Assembly (NCBI GenBank): GCA_043745805.1
Contig: JAYTSD010000032.1
Coordinates: 32,001-96,000 of the forward strand
Direction of reading: 5' to 3'
Source: Fibrobacteria bacterium
GTDB taxonomy: Bacteria > Fibrobacterota > Fibrobacteria > UBA11236
Length of the DNA stretch: 64,000 bases
In this document: in pieces, positions 37,701-54,645 of the stretch
How positions within the stretch are numbered: the first letter of the stretch is position 1
How the letters are laid out: each line of letters starts with the position of its first letter
Position numbers and translations under genes: made by a program
The notes under the pieces: model-generated
What the model saw: the letters and a program-made list of their open reading frames with translations, nothing else
Databases searched by the model: none
Told to the model about the DNA's origin: nothing

Positions 37701-37868
37701 GCTTTTACAGCTTTAGTTTCTTTGCGTGCCGATGTACAGGCTTTATTCGAAGGCGCTATGATCAATGATCCTGCTGAGGCTGTACGTTTAAATCGGCAAT
37801 TATTATTACAAGAAGTGCGTGGCTTGGTCATGCGCATGGCTGATTTTTCTGCCATTACCATAGGATAA
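34788..37868 (+). CDS. glyQS: Glycine--tRNA ligase, fused alpha and beta subunits
   Basis: Alpha motifs [48 protein letters not shown]. After a linker, beta motifs [40 protein letters not shown] follow in the same frame. Confidence 0.96.
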
Positions 37869-37940: not shown

Positions 37941-38744
37941 TTATTCTTTAATAAGTTCCTGAGCTCTTTGCGCTTCATTACTGGTAGGGCACTCCGCGAT
38001 TAAAGCTTTCCATTCTTCATTACGTTTGGCTTTATCCTTTTTCTGATCATAAATCAATCCTATTTTAAAACGTGCCGAGCAAACTTTGTTTCCCTTGGGA
38101 AACTCTTTAATGACACGCTGATACATTTCTGAAGCTTTATCTAGCTTATCGCTCTTTAAATAACATTCACCCATCCAGTAAAGCGTATTGTCCTTATAGC
38201 TTCCGCCTGCGTCTTTATCGAATACGGTTTTAAAACCTTGAAAGGCTAATTCGTATTTTCCTCTTACATAATCTTCGCGAGCTTGATTATAAACATTTTC
38301 TAAATCAAGGCCTTCCACGACTTTCACCGGAGCTTCGGATGCTGCGGTAGTATTGAGATTGGCAGTGTTAGCGGAAGTGTTTCCAGGTATTGGTGTAGCA
38401 GAGTTAGCAACCCCACTTACAATTATTTTTCGTTGATCCAGTTTATCGATTTTAGTGCTGAGTTGCGTTAAGCGATATTGGGTTTCATCGATTTGTGCTT
38501 GCAAGCGGGTGATTTGACCAGCTAATTCACCCAAGGTACTGGTTAAATCAGCTTTCATTTTACTAGTTAATCCACCTTGATTGATATTCAAATCATCAAT
38601 GGATTTTTGTAATTCCGCAACTTGTCCATGTACGCCCTTCACTTCTTGTGAAACCGTACGTAATTCTTCTGTTCGGAGTAGGGTGATTTTTGAACACCCA
38701 ACCCAAAACAAAAGGGAGCTAACTAAAAGTAGGCGATCAAGCAT
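37941..38744 (-). CDS. cpoB: Tol-Pal associated CpoB/YbgF (coiled coil + TPR)
   Basis: Directly after pal; coiled coil; YNQA...GKYELA; YWMGECY; EFPKGNK. Start at 38744 gives a lipobox-like FWVGC. Confidence 0.85.
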   Translation of the reverse strand: MLDRLLLVSSLLFWVGCSKITLLRTEELRTVSQEVKGVHGQVAELQKSIDDLNINQGGLTSKMKADLTSTLGELAGQITRLQAQIDETQYRLTQLSTKIDKLDQRKIIVSGVANSATPIPGNTSANTANLNTTAASEAPVKVVEGLDLENVYNQAREDYVRGKYELAFQGFKTVFDKDAGGSYKDNTLYWMGECYLKSDKLDKASEMYQRVIKEFPKGNKVCSARFKIGLIYDQKKDKAKRNEEWKALIAECPTSNEAQRAQELIKE

Positions 38745-38745
38745 T

Positions 38746-39288
38746 CTAGAAAGTAGTGGTAAATTCCGCTCTTCTATTTTTGCCCCATGCTGCATCATCA
38801 TGTGCATCGGAAGCAGGCTTTTCTTCACCATAACTAATGGTGCTTAGACGAGTGGCTTCCACTCCATAGCTGCTTAAATAGTCTTGTACGGCTTTAGCGC
38901 GACGTTCACCCAAAGCTAAATTGTATTCATTAGTTCCGCGTTCATCGGCATGACCTTCAACACGAGAAGTGATTTCTTTAACTTCCTTCATCAATTGACC
39001 AATGGCTTCCAAAGTCTTTTTGGACTCGGGGCTTAATGCACTTTGATCATAATTGAAATAAATTGGCTTGAAGGTTTCGGCAATGCGTGCTTGAATGCGT
39101 TGACGACGCAATTCTTCTTCACTCGGTCCGGAAGGTGTAGGAGTTGAAGTTGGCTCTTTGGTTGCTTCCATTTTTGGGGGTTCAGGTTCCTTGTCAGCTA
39201 TTGGAGCAGGCTTCTTAGAGCAACCAATAACGAGGATTAAGATAGCCCCAAGTAAGGACAAATATTTGAGTCTGGAAGTGTATTGCAT
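38746..39288 (-). CDS. pal: Peptidoglycan-associated lipoprotein
   Basis: Lipobox LVIGC; IYFNYD; EGHADERGTNEYNLALGERRA; ISYGEEKP; NRRAE; SD CAGGAG before ATG 39288. Confidence 0.96.
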   Translation of the reverse strand: MQYTSRLKYLSLLGAILILVIGCSKKPAPIADKEPEPPKMEATKEPTSTPTPSGPSEEELRRQRIQARIAETFKPIYFNYDQSALSPESKKTLEAIGQLMKEVKEITSRVEGHADERGTNEYNLALGERRAKAVQDYLSSYGVEATRLSTISYGEEKPASDAHDDAAWGKNRRAEFTTTF

Positions 39289-39399
39289 AATTTTCTCCTG
39301 AATGAGCGAATTCAATAAATGTTCGAAGCAAAAGTTAAATATTTCACTCTTTAATGGGGGATAATAACCAAAAAAAACTACTCCAAACGGTTCTTTTTC

Positions 39400-40686
39400 T
39401 TAAAAATCAGACCATACCGGCATAGAGTTCCCACCCGAAAAACTTAAGCGCTTTGTTTGTGACCCATCTGTGGACATCAGGTATAACTCTGGATTACCCG
39501 TGCGTGTAGACATAAAGACAATATGGCGTGCATCAGGACTCCAAGATGGGCTTTCATTACTCCCTGTGCCAGAAGTGAGCTTCACCATGTCTTTGCCATC
39601 AGGAGTGATGGTGGCGATATTCATATTATTGCCATCATCCATAATGGAAAATACGATGCGATCTCCTTTGGGAGACCAAGCCGGAGAGCCAAAATAACTG
39701 CCTTCATAAGTAATGCGGCGCACATTAGATCCATCTCTATCCATAATGTATAACATCGGCTGCCCGCTTCTGTCCGAGATAAAAACAATTTCATAACCAT
39801 TAGGCGACCAGCTGGGCGAAGTATCAATGGAGCCGGAAAATGTGAGCCGCGTGGGCTTGCCATCGGGTAACGTTTTGCGATAAATTTCGGAGTTACCGTC
39901 CACGGTGGAAGCATAAACAATTTCTTTGTCTATTTTATTGTAATTCGCAGCGGTATTCATGCCTTTGCTATAAAGAAAAAGTCCATTTTTCCCACTGTTT
40001 AAATCTTTCAAATGAAATTGCGGAAAGCCATCGGCATAGGTGGTATAAAGAATTTTGTTTTTCCCCTCTATCCAACAGGGTGTGAGATTGATGCTTTTGT
40101 TTTTTGTGATTTCAATCACATTTTCGCCATCATAATCCATCAGGTAGATTTCTTTGTTCCCCTGGCGCTTGGAAACGTAGGCGATTTTGCTTTGGGCAAT
40201 GCCTTTTTCCCCAAAAAGCTGATAAACCAATTCATCAGCATATTGATGTGCAATTCGGCGCAAATCATTTTTTTTACCGGAGTATTTTTTGCCAATAATT
40301 AATTCACCACTATTTACATCCATAAGTTCAAGCTGTGCCGTAAAATTGTCCCCCTCTAAGCTGTATTCTCCGCGAACATAAGCTGTAGCTTGATTTTGCA
40401 AAAAACTTTTTTTGCTACTACTATCAAATTGCGGTGCTGGAAAAACTTTAAAGCGTCGGCTAAAATTTAAATCATCGGATAATACAGTACCTGGATTGCT
40501 GGCCGATTTGGTATCCCCTTTTTTGCAATGGATTTCGGTAAAGCCAATAGCTATGGCCTCATCACTTTTTTGTTCCAAGGTGATTAAAACATCTTCGGCC
40601 ATCGACAAAGGCGATAGAACAAATAATGTTACTGTTACACAAAGAATACTTAGATGCCTTAAAACGACAAAATGCAAAAGGCGCAC
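39400..40686 (-). CDS. tolB: TolB protein
   Basis: DDLNFS, AHQYADE, KIAYVS, MDYDG, repeated PSWSP.G PD40 blades. GTG at 40686 gives a signal peptide without overlapping tolA, but the start is uncertain. Confidence 0.93.
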   Translation of the reverse strand: MRLLHFVVLRHLSILCVTVTLFVLSPLSMAEDVLITLEQKSDEAIAIGFTEIHCKKGDTKSASNPGTVLSDDLNFSRRFKVFPAPQFDSSSKKSFLQNQATAYVRGEYSLEGDNFTAQLELMDVNSGELIIGKKYSGKKNDLRRIAHQYADELVYQLFGEKGIAQSKIAYVSKRQGNKEIYLMDYDGENVIEITKNKSINLTPCWIEGKNKILYTTYADGFPQFHLKDLNSGKNGLFLYSKGMNTAANYNKIDKEIVYASTVDGNSEIYRKTLPDGKPTRLTFSGSIDTSPSWSPNGYEIVFISDRSGQPMLYIMDRDGSNVRRITYEGSYFGSPAWSPKGDRIVFSIMDDGNNMNIATITPDGKDMVKLTSGTGSNESPSWSPDARHIVFMSTRTGNPELYLMSTDGSQTKRLSFSGGNSMPVWSDF

Positions 40687-40696
40687 ATAGTATGAA

Positions 40697-41392
40697 CTAC
40701 TGCGCTTGATAAGGGAATTCAATACCAACATCGATTTGATCCTCAGGATAATTGGGGGGAATAGGCGGTACATGATCTAAACGGATAACCGTATTTAAAG
40801 CATTTTCATCTAATAAGCTATTGTTAGAGCTTGCGGCAATTTTTGCATTCTCAACTAAACCATCACGCTGTACGGTGAAGCTTACTTTCACTTTGGTGGC
40901 GGCAGGAACTTCTAATCCTGCAGGAGGATTCCATAATAAATCTGCTTTTTTTTTCACCCGATTAATCCATTGCGATAGACGCGGATCTGTGCTTGTGCTC
41001 ACGGTTAATTGTTGCGGCATGTCGGGTTGTGCTTCGGCTGTGTTTTTCACCTTCAAAGTGGAATCTACATCACGTTTAACAACCTTGGGATCAGGTTTTT
41101 TTGAATCGGGTTTAGTGGGAGCCGGCGTTAGCTTGGGAGCTTCTTCTGGGCGTGTTGGCTCGGGCTCTGGAGCGGGGAGTTCCGGCGTTTTAACCTTAGG
41201 TTGTAAAGGCCGGATGCGAGGAGCTTCTAATTGCACTAATTCAATGAGAGGCACTTCGGAAGAGTGATGATTGGATAAGGTCGCCGCTAAAATGAAAAAA
41301 GCAAATATTGCGGCATGGGCCACAAAAGAAAAGCCCATCGCTAAGCGCATTTTCGAATGGTCTTCGGCAGGAGCTGAAATAGTATTGGCCAT
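40697..41392 (-). CDS. tolA: TolA/TonB family energy transducer
   Basis: TM with SxxxH (SFVAH), Pro/Glu/Lys-rich spacer, TonB_C-like domain (WNPP, FTVQRDG, SNNSLLD); tol cluster context. Confidence 0.82.
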   Translation of the reverse strand: MANTISAPAEDHSKMRLAMGFSFVAHAAIFAFFILAATLSNHHSSEVPLIELVQLEAPRIRPLQPKVKTPELPAPEPEPTRPEEAPKLTPAPTKPDSKKPDPKVVKRDVDSTLKVKNTAEAQPDMPQQLTVSTSTDPRLSQWINRVKKKADLLWNPPAGLEVPAATKVKVSFTVQRDGLVENAKIAASSNNSLLDENALNTVIRLDHVPPIPPNYPEDQIDVGIEFPYQAQ

Positions 41393-41393
41393 A

Positions 41394-41816
41394 CTAGCGG
41401 CGATGCGGCCTTTGCAATACAGGAGTGGGGTCGGTTAAAAAACCTAGTCGTTTGCCGCCTTGCCTTTGAATGGAGGCCACTAGCTCCATGACAAAGCCAT
41501 AAGGGACGCTTTGATCGCTGTTAACAATAATGGCGGTTTCTTCATCGCCGGTCCATACCCTACGAAAATCTTTTTCAAAACTACGCGCATCCGAAGGTGC
41601 ATCATTAATAAGGATTTCACGCTCTCTGGTTACCGTAACCTGTATCGCTTTTTTTTCTTCTAATGAGGAGGCCTTGGCTTTAGGTAAATCCACTTTAATG
41701 CCTTGGCTCATGAGGGGAGCGGTAATCATAAATACCACCAAAATAGCGAAAATAATATCGATCAGATTGGTGAGATTAATCTCTGGGGATAAGCGTAAGG
41801 ATTCTCGTTTGCGCAC
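41394..41816 (-). CDS. tolR: TolR/ExbD family protein
   Basis: EINLTNLIDIIFAILVVFMITAP, VDLPKA, DQSVPYG. Confidence 0.9.
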   Translation of the reverse strand: MRKRESLRLSPEINLTNLIDIIFAILVVFMITAPLMSQGIKVDLPKAKASSLEEKKAIQVTVTREREILINDAPSDARSFEKDFRRVWTGDEETAIIVNSDQSVPYGFVMELVASIQRQGGKRLGFLTDPTPVLQRPHRR

Positions 41817-41826
41817 AGAGCCTCGC

Positions 41827-42546
41827 TTATTTCGCGTTCTTTTCTAAAACACCCAAATCGACTCGCTTGAACATACTCACTAATTCGGATCCAAACGAAA
41901 ACATGGAGGATTCCGCATTGCGATTAAAAGAAACAAAAAAGTTGTAGCCAATAGATCCTGGAATTGCCACGAATAAACCACCGAGAGTCGCGACGAGAGC
42001 TTCCGCAATACCAGGCGCAACCACAGTGATATTCGCCGATCCTTGTTGGCCTATTTCATAAAAGGCATTGATAATACCCCAAACTGTTCCGAGCAAACCT
42101 AATAGCGGGCCGGTTGCCGAACAAAAGGCTAAATAGGTTAAAAACTTATCATTGATTTCTTTTTCGGCATCCAAATTTCTCTCTACGGCATCCAAAACCA
42201 ATTGGGCGCGATGTGGGAGCGAATCGTAGGAAACATAAGGCGATAAGCTTTCCATTTCCTTAAGCCCTGCTTGTGCGATGCGACCAAAAGGGGATTCAGG
42301 CATGGCCTTGGTTAGTTTTGCAATTTCTTGTAAAGTAGGCTGAGAACCTAGAGACGATTTCCATTTTTTAAAAAACGCTTTCTTTTTTTTATTCTCATTC
42401 CATTTTTTAAAAAGTATAGCCCAAATGCCTACTGATAATAAGGCCATAACAAAAAGTGTTGCCAAGCTAGTTGGCCCACTTTTGCCAAGAATGTGCAGAA
42501 GAGGAATATTTCCGAACATAGAGATCCGTTCTGGTTTAAAGTCCAA
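41827..42546 (-). CDS. tolQ: TolQ/ExbB/MotA family proton channel
   Basis: GPLLGLLGTVWGII, VVAPGIAEALVAT, GLFVAIP. The start may be ATG 42519. Confidence 0.92.
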   Translation of the reverse strand: MDFKPERISMFGNIPLLHILGKSGPTSLATLFVMALLSVGIWAILFKKWNENKKKKAFFKKWKSSLGSQPTLQEIAKLTKAMPESPFGRIAQAGLKEMESLSPYVSYDSLPHRAQLVLDAVERNLDAEKEINDKFLTYLAFCSATGPLLGLLGTVWGIINAFYEIGQQGSANITVVAPGIAEALVATLGGLFVAIPGSIGYNFFVSFNRNAESSMFSFGSELVSMFKRVDLGVLEKNAK

Positions 42547-42639
42547 TCAGAGTATTTCAATTTAAAAAGATTTGGGAAGAAAAGTGTCGTTTAGATACGA
42601 TAGGTCAATTTTTGGGCTTGCTAAATTTATTAGAGCAGT

Positions 42640-43995
42640 TTATCCAAGGGCAAGTAATAGTCGATCGACGCGGGCTTTAAATGCAATTTCCTTTTCCATG
42701 GTCTGTTCCACTTTTTTAATACTGTGAATCACCGTGGAATAATCTCGTCCAAAGGCCAAACCAATAGTATGCAGGGAATTATCGGTGAGCTGACGCGCTA
42801 TATACATAGCGACTTGTCGCGGTTCGGCGACATGCTTTTTACGGGTTTGGGAAGTTAATAAAGGAACCGTGGTTTCGAATTCATGTGAAACCTGCTCCAA
42901 CACCTTTTTAATGGTAATGGGTTGGTTTACATTGCGAATGGTGTCTCCCAAAATTTGCTTGGCAATGGTAACGGTTATCGGCATATGCGTGAAATGAGAA
43001 TACGCGGATAGCTTGATTAAGGTACCTTCGAGTTCACGTACATTGGAAGTTACATGACTAGCTACATAAGATAGGACATCATCATTGACGCAAGAATCGA
43101 GTTGGCCATCGCTTTTCTTTTGTAAAATAGCGAGACGGGTTTCGAGATTAGGCGGTTGTAAATCAGCCAATAATCCATTATCAAAGCGAGACAAAAGGCG
43201 CGTGTGCAGGCCTTTAATTTCGGCAGGCGGCCTATCGGAAGTGATAACGATTTGACGATTAATGCTTTGTAAAACATTAAAAATATTGAAAAATTCATCT
43301 TGGGTACTTTGCTTGCCCGCGAGAAATTGAATATCATCGATTAATAAAATATCAGCATCTTTGTAAACCTGATAAAAAGCGCGTGAGTCTTTGTTTTTTT
43401 GAACGAACTCAATGTACTCGCGGGTGAATTCTTCGGAAGTACGGTAAACAATTTTACGTGCAGTTTCATTATCGAGGCAAAAGTGAGCAATGGCTTGTAA
43501 TAAATGTGTTTTGCCCATACCTGTTCCCCCATATAAAATGAGGGGGTTGAAATTAGTTTGACTAGGTGCTTCGGCAACAGCCATGCAAGCTGCATGGGCG
43601 AGTTGATTACAATCCCCGATTACAAAATTATCAAAGGTGTATTTTAAGTGTAAAGGTACTGTAACATCCAAGATAACCGAGTTGGAATGTTTGGTGGTTT
43701 CTACCGGTGTTGCTGGAGTATAAATTTCCAGTGTAGGCGCTGAAGTTGAAACTGAAAAAATCGCAGAAACCAATCGGCCTAAACGATTTTGCAATGCCGA
43801 TTCGATAATAGCTTTATAGTGATGCGCTACATATTCCAATACAAAGTGATTAGGAACACCTATGGTGGCTTCATTACCGCTAAAAGCCAATAGCTCTAGC
43901 GAGGGAAACCAAGTATGAAAAGCGGACTCAGAAACTTGCACGCTTAAATCATCAAGGCATTCAGACCAAAGGGAACTCTCGTTGCATTGAATCAA
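42640..43995 (-). CDS. dnaA: Chromosomal replication initiator protein
   Basis: YTFDNFVIG, FNPLILYGGTGMGKTHLL, LLIDDIQF, TSDRPP, NVRELEG, PRQVAMY, FGRDYSTVIHS. Confidence 0.96.
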   Translation of the reverse strand: MIQCNESSLWSECLDDLSVQVSESAFHTWFPSLELLAFSGNEATIGVPNHFVLEYVAHHYKAIIESALQNRLGRLVSAIFSVSTSAPTLEIYTPATPVETTKHSNSVILDVTVPLHLKYTFDNFVIGDCNQLAHAACMAVAEAPSQTNFNPLILYGGTGMGKTHLLQAIAHFCLDNETARKIVYRTSEEFTREYIEFVQKNKDSRAFYQVYKDADILLIDDIQFLAGKQSTQDEFFNIFNVLQSINRQIVITSDRPPAEIKGLHTRLLSRFDNGLLADLQPPNLETRLAILQKKSDGQLDSCVNDDVLSYVASHVTSNVRELEGTLIKLSAYSHFTHMPITVTIAKQILGDTIRNVNQPITIKKVLEQVSHEFETTVPLLTSQTRKKHVAEPRQVAMYIARQLTDNSLHTIGLAFGRDYSTVIHSIKKVEQTMEKEIAFKARVDRLLLALG

Positions 43996-44116
43996 AGTTC
44001 TGTCTCCATCCTATTTTGGAAGCGATAAGATAATTTTAATTGGGAGCTTGAGGGAAAATTTTGCAAGACTTAATCATATTTCGTAAAGAAAAAAAATCGT
44101 CATAAATTATCACCAC

Positions 44117-44136
44117 TTGTGAACAGCTATTCACAA
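44117..44136. promoter_or_regulatory. Inverted pair of DnaA-box-like sites upstream of dnaA
   Basis: TTGTGAACAG-CTATTCACAA. CTATTCACA is 1 mismatch and CTGTTCACA (minus strand) 2 mismatches from TTWTNCACA. Confidence 0.5.
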
Positions 44137-44216
44137 ATAAATTGCAACAAATATTTTTTTTTCTTGATCTTTAATTTGAAAGGATATAGAATGCCCAATT
44201 TACTTTAAGTTTAAGT

Positions 44217-44244
44217 TAAAGTTTTTCCTCAATTATCCCGATGT
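44217..44244 (+). promoter_or_regulatory. Putative sigma-28 (FliA/SigD-type) promoter
   Basis: TAAAGTTT...CCCGATGT (TAAA-N16-cCCGAT), about 30 bp upstream of the 44273 start. Confidence 0.45.
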
Positions 44245-44272
44245 TAATGTATACCCAAGGGAGAATTTCAAA

Positions 44273-45040
44273 ATGCTGGATATTAATACACTTTCTGCAG
44301 CAAAAAATTTAATCCCTGCCACCCCGAATAGCTCAACTTATCGATCCGAAAACTCTATCTCTGGCAAAAACCAAGAATCTGAAAAGTTATTGGAACAAAA
44401 TGCGCAGAAAATTTCTTCAACGGGATACAAATTAACCCTAGCTAATCAAAAACCTCTTAAAGCTAAAAACGAAGCTGAAAATGAAGCAGTAATTGAGAAC
44501 AAAACTAAAGATGCCACTGAATTTGAGAATCGCCAAACATGGGTTATTCAAGTTAAGGCACAAATTTTAGAACAACAAAAACAATTATTAATCGCAGGTT
44601 TGAATTTACAAGATTCAGAAACGGCGTCTTTATTTGCTTCATCCAAAGATGCGGATAAGCAAAATTCCGAAATAATAAAGGTTCCCGAGGCCTTGGTAAA
44701 TAATCAAGCCATACCTTTGGACTCAGTAGATTCAGGGTCAAATAGTAATTCTGCCGAATATTGGAATGCAGAAAATACTTCACAAAGAATTGTGAATTTT
44801 GCCACTAACTTTATTAGTTCGGTGGGTGGACAGGATAGTGCCTTCGCACAAACTTTAAGAGATGCCATTGCCGAGGGATTTCGACAAGCACAAGGGATAA
44901 CCGGTGCTCTGCCTGGGGCTGCGGGCAAATTATATGAGGACACCTTTACGGCCACCTTTAACAAGTTTGATAAATGGGTTGAAGAATTTAAGGCCAGCCC
45001 CTATACTCAAAAGACAGGCAATCCGTTAACTGCAAATTAG
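44273..45040 (+). CDS. Hypothetical protein, DUF5610-like C-terminal domain
   Basis: YWNAENTSQRIVNFA...RDAIAEGFRQA...LP...TF...FDKW pattern; SD AAGGGAG. Confidence 0.55.
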   Translation: MLDINTLSAAKNLIPATPNSSTYRSENSISGKNQESEKLLEQNAQKISSTGYKLTLANQKPLKAKNEAENEAVIENKTKDATEFENRQTWVIQVKAQILEQQKQLLIAGLNLQDSETASLFASSKDADKQNSEIIKVPEALVNNQAIPLDSVDSGSNSNSAEYWNAENTSQRIVNFATNFISSVGGQDSAFAQTLRDAIAEGFRQAQGITGALPGAAGKLYEDTFTATFNKFDKWVEEFKASPYTQKTGNPLTAN

Positions 45041-45055
45041 TGTGATGAGGCGAAT

Positions 45056-45493
45056 ATGGAAATTCGAATTAGTAATAGTAATCAAATAGCTCTTTTTATT
45101 GTGAAGGGCAAGATTACTTGGGAAAATTCTCGGGTTTTGGATACACAAATAAACAAAGTTATTGAAAATGCATGCACGCATATCGTTTTCAATTTAGATG
45201 ATGTCACTTTTTTATGTAGTGGTGGAATTGGCGCTTTGATTTACAATATGAAAAAAGTTCAGGACCAAGGTGGAGATATTTTTATTGTGTCGCAAAGCGA
45301 TTATATCCAATATCTATTTGCCACCATCGGATTCAATATTATTTTTAACGGCAAAATATTTCATACTTTTGAAGAGTTCTCGGAAACGGTTTTAGTTCCC
45401 AAAGGACTAAGTCTAAACATCTTGGATTCGCAAACAACCGTTGTGGCAACGGAAGAACATCGCTTTGCCACCAAAACTAAAAATGCCGCTTAA
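45056..45493 (+). CDS. STAS domain anti-sigma factor antagonist
   Basis: VKGKIT, IVFNLDDVTFLCSGGIGAL (phosphorylatable Ser motif). Confidence 0.85.
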   Translation: MEIRISNSNQIALFIVKGKITWENSRVLDTQINKVIENACTHIVFNLDDVTFLCSGGIGALIYNMKKVQDQGGDIFIVSQSDYIQYLFATIGFNIIFNGKIFHTFEEFSETVLVPKGLSLNILDSQTTVVATEEHRFATKTKNAA

Positions 45494-45563
45494 CTCGTTT
45501 TTGTAATAACAACAGATTGAGATTCCTTTTTTTACTTTTTTAGAAGTAAAAAAGGAGCTTTTA

Positions 45564-46640
45564 TTGTTCGATTCTTTTCCTCTTAAACTAAAACCTATTC
45601 TCCAAGAAAAAATTTGGGGCGGTGATGGACTGCATCGTTATTTAGGAAAAGGTCAAGCGACAGATAAAAGCATGGGTGAGTCTTGGGAGTTGTCGGATAG
45701 AGATGGCTTTGCAAGTATCATTGAAGCGGGTACTTATCAAGGAAGAAATTTATATGAACTGCTGCAAGAATTCCCCCAGGAAATTTTGGGGACTCCAAAA
45801 ATTTCGAGTACACATACCACTAATATAAAAGTAGTATTTCCTTTACTTTACAAATTCATTTATGCACGAGATGCCCTTTCAGTACAAGTTCATCCTGGTG
45901 AAAACAATCCCTTGGGCGAGGCCAAAACCGAGGCATGGTATATTGTACATGCTCCCGAAAATGCACAGCTAATTGTGGGATTGCAAGCCGGATTAAGTGC
46001 AGAAGCCACCCTGCAAATTTTGCAATCAAAGGATTGTGAAAAAGCTTTACAAAAAATAAAAGTACAAGCTGGAGATATGCTATTTATCCCTGCGGGTACC
46101 GTACATGCAATTACAGCGGGTTTATTGATTTATGAAGTGCAGCAAAATTCCGACACCACTTTTCGTTTATACGATTGGGGAAGAATGGATGATGCCGGTA
46201 AACCTCGTCAGCTTCATATTCAAGAATCGGCGGCGGTTATTGATTTTACTCCTCACAGAGAACATAAAATCAATCCTTTGAAAATAAAAAAAGTAAGCTA
46301 TAAAGTAGAATATTTAGTAGTCTGTAAATATTTTGCAATTATAAAATACTCGGGTTTAACAGAGATTATGCCTTTTTCAACAAAGAATAGATTTTGTGTA
46401 TTTACTTGCTTAATCGGAAGCTTTATTTTACAAAGCGCTGATAAAACCCTGAAAATGCATAGCGGTGATACATGGCTTATTCCCGCGGCCTGCGAGGATT
46501 TGACAGTTACCGCGCAAGACTTGGGCAGCCAATTTTTATGCAGTTATGTTCCTGATATCGCAGTAGATATTATTGCGCCCTTGCACGCAGCAGGTTTTGC
46601 TAAAGAGGTAATTAATCAATTGGGTATAAATTATGGCTAA
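45564..46640 (+). CDS. manA: Mannose-6-phosphate isomerase, type I
   Basis: KIWGG, GESWELS, FPLLYKFI, LSVQVHP, KTEAWYI, PAGTVHAI, EVQQNSDTTFRLYDWGR; TTG start. Confidence 0.9.
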   Translation: MFDSFPLKLKPILQEKIWGGDGLHRYLGKGQATDKSMGESWELSDRDGFASIIEAGTYQGRNLYELLQEFPQEILGTPKISSTHTTNIKVVFPLLYKFIYARDALSVQVHPGENNPLGEAKTEAWYIVHAPENAQLIVGLQAGLSAEATLQILQSKDCEKALQKIKVQAGDMLFIPAGTVHAITAGLLIYEVQQNSDTTFRLYDWGRMDDAGKPRQLHIQESAAVIDFTPHREHKINPLKIKKVSYKVEYLVVCKYFAIIKYSGLTEIMPFSTKNRFCVFTCLIGSFILQSADKTLKMHSGDTWLIPAACEDLTVTAQDLGSQFLCSYVPDIAVDIIAPLHAAGFAKEVINQLGINYG

Positions 46641-47484
46641 ATCAGTTTCTAAAAGTAAAGCTATTCCTCCATTAGGTTTTGGTTTGGGTTTGCGCATACC
46701 TCATTATGCATATATTTTTGAACATCGCCCCCCTGTTGATTTTTTTGAAATCATCTCGGAGAATTTTATGGTAACTGGCGGGTTTCCTTTGCAAAATCTG
46801 GAAAAGATTTTGGAAAGTTATACTGTGGTGATGCATGGCGTTTGTATGTCTTTAGGATCGGCGGATAAACTGGATTGGGAGTATATGAAAAAGCTCAAAG
46901 CCTTGGCTCGCAAAACCAAGGCACCATGGTTTAGTGACCATCTATGTTGGACTCGCCATAATAGTCATCACTATCATGATTTGCTTCCCTTACCTTATAC
47001 GGATGCGGTAATCAAGCATGTCGCTGAAAAAGCGCGTCAGGCGCAAGATTTTTTAGAAATTCCTTTTGGCATGGAAAACCTTTCCGCCGTCGCGGATTAC
47101 ACCTCATCGCAAATGCCGGAATGGGAGTTTTACCGTAACGTAGTGGAGAAATCTGGATGTTACATGATGCTCGATGCGAATAATATTTACGTCTCCTCTC
47201 GCAATCATCTCTTTAATCCGATAGATTATGTGAATGGATTGGATTTGTCAAGAACTTTGCAAATTCATTTAGCGGGACATACGGATAAAGGCGAATATGT
47301 TTTAGATACGCATGATCAACATGTTCGAGATGAAGTCTGGGAGATTTTCAAAGCGATTTATACAGGTATTAAAAAGTTTGGAAAAGACGTGGCGACCATG
47401 GTAGAATGGGATGATAACTTTTTATCATTTCCCGAAACTCATGCCGAAGTATTAAAAGCTAAATGCATAGTCGAAGCTTTATGA
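46633..47484 (+). CDS. DUF692 family multinuclear non-heme iron oxidative enzyme (MNIO, BufB-like)
   Basis: GLGLR, EIISENFM, HGVCMSLG, WFSDHLCW, DLLPLPYT, MENL, LDANNIYV, QIHLAGH, LDTH, EWD. Confidence 0.93.
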   Translation: MAKSVSKSKAIPPLGFGLGLRIPHYAYIFEHRPPVDFFEIISENFMVTGGFPLQNLEKILESYTVVMHGVCMSLGSADKLDWEYMKKLKALARKTKAPWFSDHLCWTRHNSHHYHDLLPLPYTDAVIKHVAEKARQAQDFLEIPFGMENLSAVADYTSSQMPEWEFYRNVVEKSGCYMMLDANNIYVSSRNHLFNPIDYVNGLDLSRTLQIHLAGHTDKGEYVLDTHDQHVRDEVWEIFKAIYTGIKKFGKDVATMVEWDDNFLSFPETHAEVLKAKCIVEAL

Positions 47485-47524
47485 TTTCGAATTAATGATT
47501 ATTACGGATAAAATAAAGACATAA

Positions 47525-47556
47525 AAAAAGGGCTTACCTTGCAGTAAACCCTTTTT
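47525..47556. terminator. Bidirectional intrinsic terminator between the MNIO gene and the precursor gene
   Basis: AAAAAGGGCTTAC-CTTGCA-GTAAACCCTTTTT. Confidence 0.75.
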
Positions 47557-47574
47557 GAACCTTAAAGGTTACTC

Positions 47575-47973
47575 TTAGGCTTTACAGCCACCCAAGCCTT
47601 TGCATTCATTATGACCTTTACAGCCATGAGCTTTGCCAGCTTTATCCGCAGCCATACCCATTTTTTTGGCGGCTTCAGATAAATCTTTCTCACTCATTTT
47701 GCATCCGCCTTTGCCTTTGCAAGAATTCATGCCTTTGCAGCCATGTTTATCTTCAGCAACAGCGGCCGCAGGGGCAGCAGCACTATCTGTAGCAGGAGCC
47801 ACAGCAGCTTTAGTAGAATCGGCCTTGGCTTTATGAGCTTTTTTAGCAGTATGCATTTTAGCAGCTTTAGGAGCCACAGCTGCTGAATCTTCAGCGGAAA
47901 CTTGTGCAACAGAAAGCATGCCTGCGGCAATACCTGCAACTGCTAATTGAGCGAATAAATTGGACTTTTTCAT
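47575..47973 (-). CDS. Secreted Cys-rich RiPP precursor candidate (bufferin BufA2-like)
   Basis: Signal peptide ending VSA, Ala/Lys-rich linker, two repeats HGCKGMNSCKGKGGC and HGCKGHNECKGLGGC; adjacent DUF692. Confidence 0.78.
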   Translation of the reverse strand: MKKSNLFAQLAVAGIAAGMLSVAQVSAEDSAAVAPKAAKMHTAKKAHKAKADSTKAAVAPATDSAAAPAAAVAEDKHGCKGMNSCKGKGGCKMSEKDLSEAAKKMGMAADKAGKAHGCKGHNECKGLGGCKA

Positions 47974-48022
47974 AATACCCTTTCTATGAGTGAGTGATGA
48001 GTGGAGTTTTGTTAAGATTTTA

Positions 48023-48256
48023 TTATTTGGCTGCAGCAGTGCTATCAGCTACTTCAGCTTTTTTCTCAACTTTAGCTTTCTTAGCCTTCTTAGCTTTTTT
48101 TACTGGCTTGGTGGTGTCCGCAACAGCAGGAGCTTTAGTAGCTTCTACGGCAGGGGCAGCAGCTGGAGCAGCAGCAGCGGTTTCAGCGGCAGAAACAGTG
48201 AGCATGCTGAAAGCGATACCGGTAGCGATCATTTTAACGAGAGTTGACTTGTTCAT
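48023..48256 (-). CDS. Small secreted Ala/Lys-rich low-complexity protein (Cys-free)
   Basis: SD ACAGGA before ATG 48256; MNKSTLVKMIATGIAFSMLTVSAA signal; AAAPAAAPA, KKAKKAKKAK, ADSTAAAK. Confidence 0.7.
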   Translation of the reverse strand: MNKSTLVKMIATGIAFSMLTVSAAETAAAAPAAAPAVEATKAPAVADTTKPVKKAKKAKKAKVEKKAEVADSTAAAK

Positions 48257-48497
48257 TTTTATTCCTGTGTAGAATGTTATTTGTTTCCCAGTTAGCAATG
48301 TAAACTGGTTTTAAGAGTCAGGCCCGTAAATGTATTAAAAAAGGTCAATTACTGTCATTTTTTTGGCAAAATACCAGAGGGATTTTCATTTTTTGCCTCC
48401 AGTTATATTATAAATACCAATCTTTTCAGAAATAAGCTTTATGGAAGTGTAAGTATCTCGAATTAAAAAAATGTTACAAATAAATTTGCAAATAATT

Positions 48498-51400
48498 TCA
48501 ATTCTCATATCCAAGATTAGGTGACAGCCATTTTTCCGTAGTTGCTAAGTCCATATTTTTTCGCAAGGCATATTCTGTAACTTGATCTTTGGCAATTTTT
48601 CCTAAACCAAAATAGCGGCTTTGGGGATGCGCAAAATACCAACCACTCACAGCAGCACCGGGATACATCGCAAAACTTTCGGTTAAAATAATATCGGCGT
48701 TCTTTTGGGCATCTAATATTTGGAATAAAATTTCTTTTTCGGTATGATCGGGGCAAGCAGGATAGCCTGGGGCTGGGCGAATGCCTTGGTATTTTTCGCG
48801 AATTAATTCTTCTTCGCTTAATTGTTCATTAGCGGCATACCCCCAAAATTCAAGCCGCACTCTTTGATGCAAGCGTTCCGCAAAAGCTTCGGCTAATCGG
48901 TCAGCCAAAGCTTTAGCCATGATACTATTATAATCATCATGATCTTTTTCGAATCGATCCGTGATTGCTTCTAAGCCAATACCTGCCGTCACCGCAAAGG
49001 CTCCAAAATAATCGGGAATACCGGTGGTTTTGGGAGCGATAAAATCGGATAGGGCAAAATTATTTTGATCCATGCCTTTATCAGTTTGTTGACGCAAAGA
49101 ATGGACTGTGGCTAAAATATTTTGGTGTGAATCATCGGTATATAGTTCAATATCATCCCCCACACTATTGGCGGGGAAAATTCCAAAAACGGCTTTGGCG
49201 GTTAAGGATTTATCCGTAACAATTTTTGCGAGCAAAGCTTTTGCTTCGTCAAACAATTTTTGCGCTTCCACTCCTACCACTGCATCTTTTAAAATCTTAG
49301 GATATTGCCCCACCAATTCCCAAGTTTGGAAAAAAGGAGTCCAGTCGATATAGTGAGACAATTCTTCTAAAGAATATTCCACGAATGCCTTAACCCCTAA
49401 AAATTTGGGTTTAGGAATCTCTCCTGCGGCAAAGCTTTCTTTCCAATTGATATTGGGTTGGCGTTTACGCGCTTCGGCAATGGGTAACAGTTTTTTATCG
49501 CCATGTTTGTTTTTGTGATCAATACGCACATTTTCATACCGTTCTTGAATTTTTCGCACCAATTCAGTTTTGGTTTCAGGATTGAGTAACCCACTCGCCA
49601 CGGGTACACTACGCGAAGCATCAAGTACATGAATAACCGGATGACTATATACGGGCGCGATTTTCACAGCCGTATGCGCCACTGAAGTTGTCGCGCCACC
49701 AATGAGCAAAGGAATTTTAAATCCCAAGCGTTCCATTTCTTTGGCGACATGCACCATTTCATCGAGCGAAGGGGTAATTAATCCCGACAAACCAATGATA
49801 TCTACGTTTTCTGCAAGTGCGACTTCTAAAATTTTATTGGCGGGTACCATCACGCCTAAATCGATAATTTTAAAATTGTTACAGGCGAGTACCACGCCCA
49901 CAATATTTTTACCAATATCATGCACATCGCCTTTTACCGTGGCCATGAGAATTTTTCCCATTTCGCGTCCGCCATTTTTTTCTTTTTCGGCTTCAATATA
50001 AGGGAATAAATACGCTACTGCTTTTTTCATCACACGCGCACTTTTCACCACTTGTGGTAGAAACATTTGTCCGGTTCCAAACAAATCACCCACCACGCTC
50101 ATACCCGCCATGAGCGGACCTTCAATCACCATTAAAGGTTTGGGAAACATTTGGCGCGCTTCTTCGGTATCCTGATCAATAAAGTCCACAATACCTTTAA
50201 CTAAAGCATGACTTAGGCGCTCTTGTACCGTGCCTTTGCGCCAAGCTAATTCTTCTACTTTTTCTTTACCCACTTTTTTTACGGTTTCGGCAAAGTTCAC
50301 CAATCTCTCGGTAGAATCGGGGCGTCGATTGAGTAAGACATCTTCTACTAATTCTAATAAGTCTTTGGGAATATTTTCATACACTTGTAGCATGCCTGCA
50401 TTAACAATGCCCATGTCTAGGCCTGCTTTTATAGCGTGATAGAGAAAAGCGGAATGCATAGCTTCGCGTACTGGGTTATTTCCGCGAAAAGAAAAAGAAA
50501 TATTGCTTACGCCCCCACTAACATGGCAATGCGGTAAATTTTGTTTAATCCAACGTGCTGCTTCGATAAAATCCACAGCATAATTATTATGCTCTTCCAA
50601 GCCCGTAGCCACTGTAAGAATATTGGGATCGAAAATAATATCTTGCGGAGGAAAGCCAATTTCTTTCGTCAATATGCGATAGCTACGCGAACAAATTTCT
50701 ATGCGACGTGCCAAATTATCCGCTTGACCTTTTTCATCAAAGGCCATGACTACCGCTGCGGCACCGTAACGTCGGAGTAAAGTCGCTTTTTCTTTAAAGG
50801 CGACTTCGCCTTCTTTTAAACTGATAGAGTTCACAATAGCTTTGCCCTGCACGCATTGCAAACCTTTTTCAATCACGGACCATTTGGAAGAATCGATCAT
50901 CACAGGCTTTACCGAAATGTCGGGTTCGCTAGCGACGAGATGCATAAACTTTACCATGGCGGCTTCGGAGTCTAACATGCCTTCGTCCATATTCACGTCG
51001 AAGATTTGCGCGCCACCCTCAATTTGTTGTCTTGCAATAGCCAGACCCGTATCATAATCACCCGAAAGAATAGCTTTGGAAAATTTCGGGGAACCGGTGA
51101 TATTTGTTCTTTCGCCGATATTCACAAAATTACTTTCCGGACGTATTACCAAGGGTTCTAGGCCTGCGAGACGAGTATAAGGCTCGATGGTAGGGATTTT
51201 GCGAGGCGGAAATTTAGCAACGATAGTAGCAATTTTATTAATGTGTTCAGGAGTAGTTCCGCAGCAACCTCCCACAATATTTAAAAAACCACTAGAAGCA
51301 AATTCTTCAATGAGGTTAGACATTTCATCGGCAGTTTGATCATATTGTCCAAACTCATTAGGTAACCCTGCATTGGGATGACAGCTAATATGCACATCCG

Positions 51401-52184
51401 CCAATCGCGATAATTCTTCTACATAAGGACGCATATCTTTCGCACCTAAGGCGCAGTTAATGCCGATACTCATTAAAGGAATATGAGAAATGGAAATTAA
51501 AAAGGCTTCCATGGTTTGACCCGAAAGCGTACGTCCGCTTTTATCCACAATCGTTGCGGATACCATAATCGGGATGCGAATTTGATGCGCCTCAAAATAT
51601 TGTTCAATTGCGAAAAGCGCGGCTTTGCAATTTAAAGTGTCGGTACAGGTTTCAATTAAAAAAAGATCTGCACCCCCATCGATTAAACCAGTTACTTGTT
51701 CTGAGTATGCGCTGACTAATTCATTAAAATGCACCGAGCGAAAACCCGGATCATTTACATCGGGCGACATGGAGGCGGTACGGGTCGTTGGCCCAATAGA
51801 TCCGGCCACAAAACGTGGCTTGTCAGGATTTGTGGCCGTAAATTCCATCGCCACTTTTTTGGCAATACGTGCCCCACACACATTTAAATCATAAACGGCA
51901 CTTTCCATTTTATAATCGGCCATGGAAATGGCATTGGAATTAAACGTATTGGTTTCTAAAATATCTGCACCGGCTTCTAAATAAGCACGATGAATACCTT
52001 CAATCACATGCGGTTGTGTAATGGCCAACATATCATTATTGCCTTTTACATCACAACTATGATTGGCAAATCGCTCACCACGAAAATCCGCTTCATGCAA
52101 AGTATGCTTTTGAATCATGGTGCCCATGGCTCCATCGAGAATAAGAATGCGCTTGGACATTAAGTCATAAATAGGATGGCTCAT
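48498..52184 (-). CDS. metH: Cobalamin-dependent methionine synthase
   Basis: [43 protein letters not shown] (B12-binding), [12 protein letters not shown]. Confidence 0.98.
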
Positions 52185-53131
52185 GTTTTTCCTTTTTCTG
52201 CGGTAATGAGTAAGCTTTCAATTTCGGGAAAGTCTTTAGTACTGCCGGTGATCTCTGAATGAATATTGATATAGCCGCAATCGCGCAGCCAATTTTCTAA
52301 GTCGTTGAGCGCGAAGCCCAACCAAAAATCTCCGAATTTACTTTGCATCCATTCTTCGGAATGCGCAAGTAAATCCAAGATTAAAATTCTTCCGCCGGGT
52401 TTGAGTAAGCGATAGCTTTCAGCAAGCACGGCTTCGGGCTTTGCGGCATGATGTAAAGATTGCGAGAGGAGAGCCACATCAAAACTTTGTGCATTTAGGC
52501 CTGTTTCTTCCATAGTCGCTTGTATGAAGTGTAAATGTTCGGTTTCGCCCCCAACACTTTGTTTGGCGAGTCGAATTTGTTCTTCGCTATTGTCTACGGC
52601 ACTTACAAAGTTACCTGATTTAGCGAGTTGCGCCGCAAGCCGTCCATTACCACAACCTAAATCTACAATGCATTGACCCCGTAACATCTGAATTAACCCC
52701 AAGCTTAAAGCCTTCCAAGTTTGTCCAGGTGAAGGTTTGTTTTGATGCGCTAAGCTATTGAAAAATTGTAGCGAGGCTTCGGCCCGTTCATGTAAAATCT
52801 TTTTGAGTTGGCGTTGATCTCTTTCAAACCATTTGGCAGTTTGCGCACTTTCCAAAGCATTTTGTACGACAGAAAACTTTGCATCGGTTTGAATTTCGCC
52901 TGGCAAGCGATAATAAACTTTTTGACCTTCTTTTTTATTGACGACTAAACCTTCGTCTTTCAATAGTCCCAACTGAGTCGAAAGTGTACTCTGTCCGAGA
53001 TTTAAAATTTTTTGTAATTCACCCACGGCTAACTCATTGCCATTTAAAGCGGAAATAATGCGCAAACGCGTTTCATCGCTGAGTAAGCGAAATATGGCGG
53101 TGAGTACATCGATTTCTAAAAATTTGGACAA
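52181..53131 (-). CDS. sahR: ArsR-HTH + SAM-binding methyltransferase-domain regulator (SahR/SamR type)
   Basis: N-terminal ArsR wHTH ([28 protein letters not shown]), C-terminal [25 protein letters not shown] overlap with metH; TTG start. Confidence 0.8.
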
Positions 53132-53199
53132 GTGACCCTCTAAATAATGAAAGATAAAGACATAATAAAGCCAAAATAAGGAGATGTCTTTTGTATATC

Positions 53200-53225
53200 A
53201 ATATATCATGAAATAAAGATATATT
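53200..53225. promoter_or_regulatory. Putative SahR operator
   Basis: AATATATC-ATGAAATAAA-GATATATT (core ATATC-N10-GATAT), about 70 bp upstream of sahR. Confidence 0.6.
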
Positions 53226-53325
53226 ATTTTAAGCCCTCGGTTCAAGGGTTAGATTCGGTATGATTTTTTAGAGGGTAAAATATTTGTGAGGGCCAGCTGG
53301 GCAGCTTAGGCCCAAAGCTAAGAAA

Positions 53326-54645
53326 TTATTTTTCCCAAGGCGGCGCAAAAACTAATTCTCGGCCTTTTATATTCGTGAAAAATTCGCCTTCGCCATAAAC
53401 CATATTGCCATTGACAAAAGTCATTACTGGCCATCCTTTAGTGGTTAGGCCATGATAAGGACTCCAATTTACCTTGGTTTGTAATTTCCCATTTTCAATG
53501 GTTCTTTTACGTTCCATATCAACCAAAATAAAATCGGCATCATAGCCCGGAGCAATGCGGCCTTTGCCTACCACACCATAAAGTTCTACGGGCTTTTCGC
53601 ACATCCAACGCACTACTTCTTGAATACTACAAAGTCCCAAATTGACTTGATTCAACATCAAAGGCAAAGACGTTTCCACACCTGGCATTCCCGAAGGACT
53701 ATGAGGGTAACCTTTTTCTTTTTCTTCGATGGTATGTGGAGCATGATCGGTAGCAATGCAATCTATTATGCCAGCTCGCAAAGCACGCCATAAGGCCTCA
53801 CCATGGCGTTTTTCACGAATAGGAGGATTCATTTGCCCATAGGTTCCGAGGCGATCATAAACATCTGGCGTATGCATTAAAAAATGTTGTGGACAAACTT
53901 CCACCGAAATTAATCCGGGCACTTTTTCGCGCGCTAAAAATTCGGTTTCCTCTTCGCTAGTTAAATGCAATATGTGTAAACGTCGATTATATTTTTTAGA
54001 TAAATGCACGGCGAGTTGAGTGGCTTTAAGCGCCACTTCCGGACTACGGATTTTATTATGATCGTGTACATCCGTAGAAGCTCCGTAAATTTCCTTATTG
54101 GCGCGAATGGTGTCTTCATCTTCCGCATGCACCGCAATTAAACGACGGCCTTGAGAAAATATATTTTCCAAATCTTCTTTGCGATGAACCAGTAAGGAAC
54201 CTGTAGATGCTCCCATAAAAATTTTTATACCGCATACGTTAGGCGTATTATTGAGCTCTTCCACATTGTTCGGTGTCGCACCAATAAAAAAATTGTAATT
54301 GACTAAACTTTTTTGCGCGGCCATAGCTTTTTTTTGCGCCATGATTTCGGCGGTAATCGTATTAGGCACCGTATTGGGCATGTCTAAAAAGGAGGTTACT
54401 CCACCCGCAGCGGCTGCGCGTGATCCCGATTCTAAATCCTCTTTCCAAGTCATACCCGGATCGCGAAAATGCACTTGCGGATCCATGGCTCCAGGCAAAA
54501 GGAAAAGACCTAATGCATCAATGATTTCGCCTTGCGGAGGAATGCCCGCTTCGACACGGACTATTTTTCCATTTTCAATTAAAACATCGGCTTGCTGTAA
54601 ATTTTCAGAAGAGACAACTATGGCATTTTTAATAAGTAAACTCAT
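53326..54645 (-). CDS. pyrC: Dihydroorotase (multifunctional-complex type)
   Basis: PGAMDPQVHFRDPG, DMPNT, IKIFMG, VHAED, EVCPQH, MNPPIR, ATDHAPH, SGMPGVET. Confidence 0.9.
   Translation of the reverse strand: MSLLIKNAIVVSSENLQQADVLIENGKIVRVEAGIPPQGEIIDALGLFLLPGAMDPQVHFRDPGMTWKEDLESGSRAAAAGGVTSFLDMPNTVPNTITAEIMAQKKAMAAQKSLVNYNFFIGATPNNVEELNNTPNVCGIKIFMGASTGSLLVHRKEDLENIFSQGRRLIAVHAEDEDTIRANKEIYGASTDVHDHNKIRSPEVALKATQLAVHLSKKYNRRLHILHLTSEEETEFLAREKVPGLISVEVCPQHFLMHTPDVYDRLGTYGQMNPPIREKRHGEALWRALRAGIIDCIATDHAPHTIEEKEKGYPHSPSGMPGVETSLPLMLNQVNLGLCSIQEVVRWMCEKPVELYGVVGKGRIAPGYDADFILVDMERKRTIENGKLQTKVNWSPYHGLTTKGWPVMTFVNGNMVYGEGEFFTNIKGRELVFAPPWEK

Follow-up and report, generated by a model that had tools for sequence, protein, structure and literature searches.

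A proposed rearranged bufferin-2-like locus in a Fibrobacteria bacterium: an MNIO gene behind manA faces a putative Cys-Lys-Gly repeat precursor gene, with no partner gene in 64 kb

In bufferin and captophorin loci, the gene of an MNIO (DUF692) enzyme ordinarily follows that of its precursor peptide and precedes that of a partner protein, and the locus described here raises the question of what to make of such an enzyme when neither rule holds. The locus lies in a stretch of 64,000 nt from a Fibrobacteria bacterium (contig JAYTSD010000032.1, positions 32,001-96,000), which we call the window and in whose coordinates all features are given. An MNIO gene at 46633..47484(+) overlaps the end of manA and faces, at 47575..47973(-), the gene of a 132-aa protein with a repeated Cys-Lys-Gly motif. 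In characterised bufferins and captophorins, cysteines are converted to 5-thiooxazoles, each at the cost of 4 Da and with an absorbance at about 305 nm, and the periplasmic product binds Cu(I)/Cu(II) (PMC11626156; PMC13097082; PMC12452194). They are among the most widespread ribosomal peptide natural product families, and the pair of MNIO and PME1 partner is treated as their invariant core. Both proteins of the window are homologous to those of bufferin-type systems, the catalytic residues of the enzyme are intact, the gene order is odd and the pairing of manA with the MNIO gene is conserved among relatives. We propose, at about an even chance of being right in all its parts, that the locus is a lineage-specific, rearranged member of the bufferin-2 or 'Cys-Lys' captophorin group whose partner is encoded outside the window.

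The MNIO has 283 residues and no fused partner domain. The Pfam family PF05114 (MbnB_TglH_ChrH) matched it over profile positions 2-261 of 263, with an E-value of 3.1e-94 and 315.6 bits (cut-off 25). The best NCBIfam model was the equivalog MNIO_BufB (NF050167), whose 302.4 bits lay 8 below the cut-off of 310; the HvfB model reached 222.5 bits against a cut-off of 360, and the ApyH, ChrH, and MbnB models scored far lower than either. The nearest solved structure was 3BWW, a DUF692 protein of Histophilus (E 5.5e-46), followed by TglH and MbnB. Residues H68, H103, E148, D181, N184, H212, D225, H227, E258, and D260 of the MNIO aligned with residues of MbnB, TglH, and 3BWW at positions that, from the MbnB literature, we take to be iron ligands or, for D260, the catalytic Asp. 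All of them except H103 were invariant in the 59 members of the clade to which the enzyme belongs (see below) and in 81 MNIOs from related loci, and H103 was His in 58 of the 59 and in 81 of the 81. The preliminary description of this locus, made from the DNA letters, had proposed a full-length DUF692 protein with its metal-ligand motifs, and both parts of that proposal hold.

The residue after the catalytic D260 is a second Asp, D261, which is conserved in 56 of the 59 clade members and 74 of the 81 locus MNIOs; the enzyme reads E258-W-D260-D261 where the HvfB-type 3BWW reads E-R-D-F. This position is Asp in Cys-Lys MNIOs, with a modelled contact to the Lys of the substrate, and Phe in Lys-Cys MNIOs (PMC13097082). 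With its D261, the window's enzyme looks tuned to precisely the C-K-G motif of the neighbouring precursor. Judged by its sequence, the enzyme is a bufferin-type MNIO.

The convergent gene has a GAAAGGG ribosome-binding site before its ATG. Its product begins with a hydrophobic N-terminus (residues 1 to about 27) that ends in VSA/ED and was judged to be a signal peptide from its n-, h-, and c-regions, the VSA/E and a modelled N-terminal helix at residues 6-18. There follow an Ala/Lys-rich spacer, half-site 1 (HGCKGMNSCKGKGGC, with Cys79/85/91), a linker of 26 residues (shown in context as KMSEKDLSEAAKKMGMAADKAGKAHG) and half-site 2 (HGCKGHNECKGLGGC, with Cys118/124/130). The two copies of HGCKGxNxCKGxGGC, separated by MSEKDLSEAAKKMGMAADKAGKA, hold six Cys in total, so that the secreted 132-aa protein with two repeats and a helical spacer is as first described, in coordinates and in content. 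A search for this motif in all six frames of the window returned only the two copies in the precursor, and the further CKG-repeat peptides for which the preliminary description had suggested looking did not turn up in the 64 kb.

NCBIfam's BufA2 equivalog (NF050166) matched the precursor with an E-value of 5.1e-4 and 20.2 bits, below its cut-off of 60, and matched 54 of the 57 members of the precursor's family at E<=0.01 (best 5.7e-12). In the alignment of these 57 sequences the six Cys, N83, N122, the Gly positions, H116, and, within the linker, A102 and K111-A115 are invariant or nearly so. The precursor has the Sec signal peptide and the six Cys in Cys-Lys motifs that characterise the BUF_6-12Cys group. 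An AlphaFold2 model built with the 57 relatives was too poor for a fold search (mean pLDDT 56.8, pTM 0.30), with only the linker helix at 95-105 predicted confidently (pLDDT about 80-84). We assign the protein as a diverged BufA2 or "Cys-Lys" captophorin precursor, homologous to the equivalog family and outside it.

It does not appear to stand alone. A profile search of 1.84 billion cluster representatives returned 1,028 proteins at E<=1e-3, of which 105 reached E<=1e-10. The helix-linker architecture is seen in 51 of these 105 best representatives: in 22 of them the chain stops directly behind the second repeat, like that of the window's protein, and 29 add a C-terminal helix-like tail. The closest relatives, all labelled hypothetical, keep the whole architecture at 40-66% identity, and two of them carry the names of Fibrobacteria or Fibrobacteres metagenome-assembled genomes (MAGs). 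More distant matches are ordinary six-Cys or twelve-Cys Buf2 proteins with their halves about 6 residues apart. For the precursor, an Atlas look-up yielded no lead as high as 0.9; the weaker ones point to unnamed clusters of low complexity from Acidobacteriota and Verrucomicrobiota. By these homologies, the precursor belongs to a sizeable, unnamed sub-branch of the Buf2 or 'Cys-Lys' captophorin precursors.

The MNIO gene is the last gene of an operon that contains manA. The latter, at 45564..46640(+), encodes a class I mannose-6-phosphate isomerase of 358 aa (TIGR00218, 142.5 bits against a cut-off of 116.2; PF20511 and PF21621), in whose sequence the motifs SVQVHP, TEAW, and GTVHA can be read. 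The stop codon of manA and the start of the MNIO gene overlap by 8 nt (ATGGCTAA), and the MNIO is translationally coupled to manA. Upstream, the apparent four-gene operon (44273-47484(+)) comprises genes for a DUF5610-like protein of 255 aa and a STAS-domain anti-sigma-factor antagonist before manA and the MNIO gene, with gaps of 15, 70, and -8 nt. In an Atlas look-up the 255-aa product of the first gene grouped with DUF5610 clusters and not with DUF2063.

The MNIO and precursor genes are separate, convergent transcription units. Between their stop codons lies a spacer of 90 nt (47485-47574) with one hairpin at 47525..47556, which stands between an A-run and a T-run. For the spacer, folding energies of -16.4 kcal/mol (+ strand, z -2.4) and -20.7 kcal/mol (- strand, z -3.2) were computed, and a terminator scan called the hairpin on the - strand with 14 pairs. 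The hairpin is likely a bidirectional intrinsic terminator common to both genes. The terminator between convergent genes and the coupling to the isomerase gene, both pointed out in the preliminary description, are thus borne out: the single hairpin folds on both strands, and the pairing with manA recurs in the clade of the enzyme, as shown below.

We then looked for the partner, a PME-type 1 protein (DUF2063 with an RRE-like NGO1945_C domain), which is not encoded beside the MNIO. A Pfam scan of all window open reading frames (ORFs) of at least 75 aa (48 + 51, with eleven re-scanned at E<=0.1) gave no match to DUF2063, NGO1945_C, or DoxX in the 64 kb. A BufC hidden Markov model (HMM) was built from the 73 ORFs found behind the MNIO in related loci and finds 72 of them again; the five of these ORFs that were checked all carry DUF2063 and NGO1945_C. 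Run over all window ORFs of at least 40 aa, the model gave a best E-value of 1. As possible hidden partners, the 255-aa DUF5610 protein, two unannotated proteins as large as a partner would be (293 aa and 336 aa), and the ManA profile were compared with a 53-sequence BufC alignment by hhalign, and all were rejected at a probability of <=0.3%. Pfam, the HMM, and hhalign therefore agree with the earlier remark that the window holds no DUF2063 or DoxX gene. The same remark was extended to a 'remote or dispensable' partner; these are two different claims, which a window of 64 kb cannot separate.

For comparison we used 80 related loci, taken from among the matches listed in a scan of species-representative genomes with an MNIO alignment (602 stretches listed). 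Their MNIOs are 49-62% identical to the window's, and the clade of the latter is not among the matches listed. A DUF2063 homologue stands beside the MNIO in 79 of the 80 loci and is strictly adjacent in 74; the five that fall short do so by start-codon choice only or by an inserted gene (L035), and the sole locus without a homologue is a contig of 1,652 bp. Matches to the window's precursor at E<=0.01 (71 ORFs; phmmer, best 3.3e-15) were found in 67 loci, and in 66 of the 80 the MNIO gene is immediately preceded by such a match, on the same strand. The pairing of enzyme and precursor seen in the window is not due to chance: the window's small protein is homologous to canonical Buf2 precursors, whose genes elsewhere immediately precede those of MNIOs. 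Thirteen loci have no precursor match, among them six Chlamydiota-labelled and other top-ranked MAGs (L004-L009), and other Cys-rich secreted ORFs lie upstream of the MNIO in L004, L005, L006, and L008. Neither a manA-like gene nor a precursor of the helix-linker type occurs in any of the 80 loci.

Some of these loci have features of their own. L001-L003 (MAGs labelled Parachlamydiaceae, Chlamydiales, and uncultured bacterium) have another precursor subtype, in which a helical N-terminal domain (...LSPEAKKKF..., ...LDPAGKKLA...) precedes the six Cys; in L001, L003, and L006 the MNIO gene is preceded by a tandem of two or three ORFs for Cys-rich secreted proteins; and in L004 and L007 a DoxX gene lies nearby on the opposite strand.

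The literature describes the same order as these loci. Gene order is reported under 'strict conservation of bufABC', and among 864 complete genomes with Buf_6-12Cys precursors none lacked an MNIO and only 1 lacked a PME-type 1 protein (PMC12452194, Table 3). In Caulobacter, BufB1 and BufC1 are both required and sufficient (PMC11626156), and FonB and FonC form a stable heterodimer (PMC13097082). The canonical order of precursor, MNIO, and DUF2063 (with or without DoxX), from which the window had been said to depart, is hence the rule in 79 of the 80 loci and in print, and is absent here, where manA and the MNIO gene lie on the + strand and the precursor gene on the - strand.

To place the enzyme, we computed a midpoint-rooted FastTree phylogeny of 201 MNIOs (120 best database hits and 81 from the loci) and took the smallest clade that holds the window's MNIO and three enzymes whose contigs seem to carry a helix-linker precursor. 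This clade has 59 members at a support of 0.999 and contains none of the 80 partner-linked loci; its named relatives are Fibrobacterota MAGs. Nine positions (F16, L18, F37, C71, G146, A152, V153, D204, and V257) set it apart from the 142 other bufferin-type MNIOs, and the substitutions include S152A and Y153V, beside the ligand pair E148/N149. Within the clade, MNIOs are 61-81% identical and the adjacent manA products 44-60%; the MNIO is thus the more conserved of the two, which argues for an active enzyme.

Co-location in relatives was approximated by equal longest-contig values between the match lists of MNIO, manA, and precursor, with shifted lengths as control. MNIO and manA gave 18 coincidences (control mean 1.2, maximum 4), all of them inside the 59-member clade and 0 of 61 among the other MNIO hits; the 18 include the contig of the window itself and a contig of 1,651 bp, on which both genes would not fit whole. 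Of the clade members, 35 are on contigs of at least 2.5 kb, and 16 of these 35 have a manA match. Several of the contigs with manA and MNIO are only 2.8-4.7 kb long, and both genes must therefore lie close together. The named relatives of ManA are proteins of Fibrobacteria or Fibrobacterota MAGs. The link between manA and the MNIO gene is conserved in the clade of the enzyme. A complex prediction for MNIO with ManA scored 0.00 against a mark of 0.32 and, having been run without controls, weighs neither way.

We consider that these data are best accommodated by a rearranged bufferin-2-type system with its partner elsewhere in the genome, for which we infer Cys modification, metal binding, and a remote partner as follows. 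The 132-aa protein would be made with its Sec signal peptide and, before export, the multi-iron, O2-dependent MNIO would turn some or all of the Cys-Lys-Gly cysteines into 5-thiooxazoles. The product would then be exported, cleaved after VSA, and chelate copper in the periplasm, where the helical linker would bring the two three-Cys half-sites together. The MNIO would still work with a DUF2063/RRE partner (PME-type 1, BufC) encoded outside the 64 kb, its own gene having moved into the housekeeping operon behind manA. Since only 1 of the 864 genomes mentioned above lacks PME-type 1, a remote partner is the default. That the product would be a new metallophore, as first suggested, is an expectation drawn from homology.

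Several points weigh against this proposal. Four tests for a canonical cluster came out negative: the cut-offs of the BufB and BufA2 equivalogs were both missed (302.4 against 310 and 20.2 against 60), no PME1 gene is adjacent, and the bufABC order is absent. A partner 'elsewhere' is an assumption drawn from statistics on canonical systems, with none seen in the window; precursors of this subfamily would probably have escaped the published pipelines, and a remote partner would itself be unusual. The nine diagnostic substitutions may mean that an interaction or the chemistry has changed. MNIO and precursor coincide on 5 contigs (control mean 1.9, maximum 5), a count that is not significant by itself. 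Two of these cases are persuasive: a contig of 14,467 bp with relatives of MNIO, precursor, and manA (P0040, P0121, and P0271), all labelled Fibrobacteria bacterium, and one of 7,972 bp with P0072 and P0124. The coincidences at 2,637 bp and 2,092 bp are ambiguous, and a case at 1,026 bp falls outside the clade. Only 1 of the 16 contigs with manA and a clade MNIO shows a linker-type precursor among the matches, so that the adjacency may not be general. The window's own precursor is absent from the protein collection that holds its MNIO and ManA, which makes under-calling of small, low-complexity genes plausible. Of the bufferin-like locus as first described, the enzyme type, the precursor type, the gene order, and the coupling to manA therefore stand, whereas the evidence for conservation of the adjacency between MNIO and precursor is thin, with two persuasive and two or three ambiguous coincidences.

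The missing partner can also be read literally, with an MNIO of this clade that needs no DUF2063 protein and either recognises the helix-linker precursor directly, the conserved linker (AAKKMG...KAGKAH) serving as recognition element, or uses another helper, which could be a product of its own DUF5610-STAS-manA operon. We think this unlikely, and we are similarly doubtful of its broader form, in which a whole Fibrobacterota-like clade would have dispensed with the DUF2063/RRE partner, become fixed behind manA, and come to act, unaided or with some other sort of helper, on a tail-to-tail, helix-split 3+3-Cys precursor. Such an enzyme would account for the lack of DUF2063, NGO1945_C, and DoxX in 64 kb, where 79 of 80 related loci have DUF2063 adjacent, for a separate clade (support 0.999) with none of the 80 partner-linked loci and nine diagnostic substitutions, and for a co-location with manA confined to that clade (18 against 1.2 expected, 0 of 61 outside, 0 in the 80 loci). 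MovX has been reported to work without a separate partner, but it has a winged-helix domain (PMC12452194), whereas the window's MNIO is of ordinary length (283 aa) and has no extra domain. Also against it, no protein of the window resembles BufC (hhalign <=0.3% for the 255-aa, 293-aa, and 336-aa proteins and the ManA profile), ManA keeps the hallmarks of a genuine isomerase, and the view is limited to 64 kb of the genome.

A further explanation is that the two genes are neighbours and no working pair: the Cys-rich protein might be an unmodified, thiol-based metal binder of the periplasm or be modified by another MNIO and BufC, or the MNIO might have another substrate. 'Sizeable proportions' of the Buf1 and Buf2 precursor genes are indeed not beside MNIO genes, and some genomes carry several MNIO and precursor genes (PMC12452194); here, moreover, the two transcription units are separate and convergent, and the 5 coincidences of MNIO and precursor do not exceed the control. 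We nevertheless hold this to be improbable, as a Cys-Lys-type MNIO with D261 lies only 90 nt from a Cys-Lys-Gly repeat protein, the clade defined by precursor-linked MNIOs is exactly the clade of the window's enzyme, all three genes coincide on the 14,467-bp contig, and the window has no other ORF with the Cys motif. Far less probable still is that the MNIO is an inactive or decaying relic left after the loss of bufC. The partner gene, required in characterised systems (PMC11626156), is missing from the locus, yet the ORF is of full length, all 59 clade members keep the same ligand and catalytic residues (H103 excepted, at 58 of 59), the MNIOs of the clade are more alike (61-81% identity) than the products of the neighbouring housekeeping gene manA (44-60%), and the gene is translationally coupled to manA. 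We therefore retain the rearranged bufferin-2-type system with a partner outside the window as our preferred reading.

Other genes surround the locus. Upstream of the precursor gene, on the same strand, orf77 (48023..48256(-)) encodes an Ala/Lys-rich, secreted-looking protein of 77 aa without Cys. It ends 49 nt before the precursor gene, has an AGGA ribosome-binding site 8 nt before its ATG at 48256 and a promoter-like site at 48358-48329(-), and may be co-transcribed with the precursor gene. The N-terminus of its product is 49% identical to the signal region of the precursor over 35 residues (E 8e-5), and the protein had no Pfam or NCBIfam match. It resembles the N-terminal half of the precursor minus the Cys domain and may be a paralogue cut short or a periplasmic protein in its own right. 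Further upstream of both, on the same strand, a metal-regulator-like gene at 52181-53131(-) encodes an ArsR/SmtB-type helix-turn-helix domain fused to an S-adenosylmethionine-dependent methyltransferase domain; its stop codon overlaps by 4 nt the start of metH (48498-52184(-)), which encodes a cobalamin-dependent methionine synthase. An Rfam scan of 43500-53500 at E<=0.1 gave no match, and hence no riboswitch.

Elsewhere in the window, the alpha and beta subunits of glycyl-tRNA synthetase are fused in one ORF of 1,026 aa at 34788-37868(+) (PF02091 and PF02092). A tol-pal type cluster at 37941-43995(-), which adjoins dnaA, encodes TPR, OmpA-family, TolB, and TonB_C-domain proteins and homologues of ExbD/TolR and TolQ/ExbB; a DnaA-box scan found no box cluster beside dnaA. 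A small ORF at 11314-11565(-) matches the BrnA antitoxin family (PF14384, E 5.6e-9).

In the literature searched, including the supplements of PMC12452194 (with incomplete coverage), we found no description of this arrangement, no paper that links DUF692 with mannose-6-phosphate isomerase, and nothing on this arrangement among reports of standalone, partner-less MNIOs. The words 'opposite', 'convergent', and 'orientation' are absent from the main text of PMC12452194; in its supplements 'mannose' occurs 0 times, an absence that is not complete, and 'fibrobacter' 12 times, including in a row for Fibrobacter succinogenes with zero counts. Published mining took precursors from the genes preceding the MNIO and partners from those following it (PMC12452194), and a clade with a convergent precursor and with manA in front would therefore be overlooked, or its enzymes would be given no substrate. 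The locus adds a precursor subfamily of considerable size that has no name, to which 51 of the 105 best representatives belong, and a distinct enzyme clade with a conserved and unexplained link to manA. It is a natural test case for which MNIOs work partner-free and for how a substrate with a signal peptide is held from export until it is modified. Should the clade turn out to need no such partner, its enzymes would be the first MNIOs to form thiooxazoles partner-free on a substrate with a Sec signal; should a partner gene merely lie in another part of the genome, the locus extends a known family modestly.

Among known systems, the oxazolin, fontiphorin, and gonophorin group (HvfABC, FonABC, and NgoABC; Lys-Cys) shares with the locus the enzyme superfamily, precursors with signal peptides and repeated Cys motifs, and copper handling, and 3BWW, the closest match among solved structures, belongs to this group. 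It differs in its motif EGKCG, with Lys before Cys, in the Phe of its MNIO at the position of D261, and in the adjacent PME1 partner, and the HvfB model reaches only 222.5 of the required 360 bits here. MovX, the second MNIO of Vibrio methanobactin-like clusters, cleaves an N-C-alpha bond. It is the sole precedent we found that is reported without a separate partner (PMC12452194), and unlike the window's enzyme it has its own winged helix-turn-helix domain and falls in a different MNIO cluster. The closest relative is bufferin 2 (BufA2/BufB2/BufC2 of Caulobacter vibrioides; BUF_6/12Cys; 'Cys-Lys' captophorins), from which the window differs in that the three-Cys halves of its precursor are split by a conserved, helix-forming linker of 26 residues instead of about 6, the precursor gene is convergent with the MNIO gene instead of upstream on the same strand, the MNIO gene is the last of a manA operon and is not followed by a DUF2063 gene, and its proteins miss both NCBIfam equivalog cut-offs. 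The two have in common a Sec-signal precursor with six Cys in C-K-G-x-N-x-C-K-G-x-G-G-C repeats and an MNIO of the same large sequence group with Asp after the catalytic Asp and, by analogy, the expected product in both would be a small periplasmic copper-binding protein with 5-thiooxazoles.

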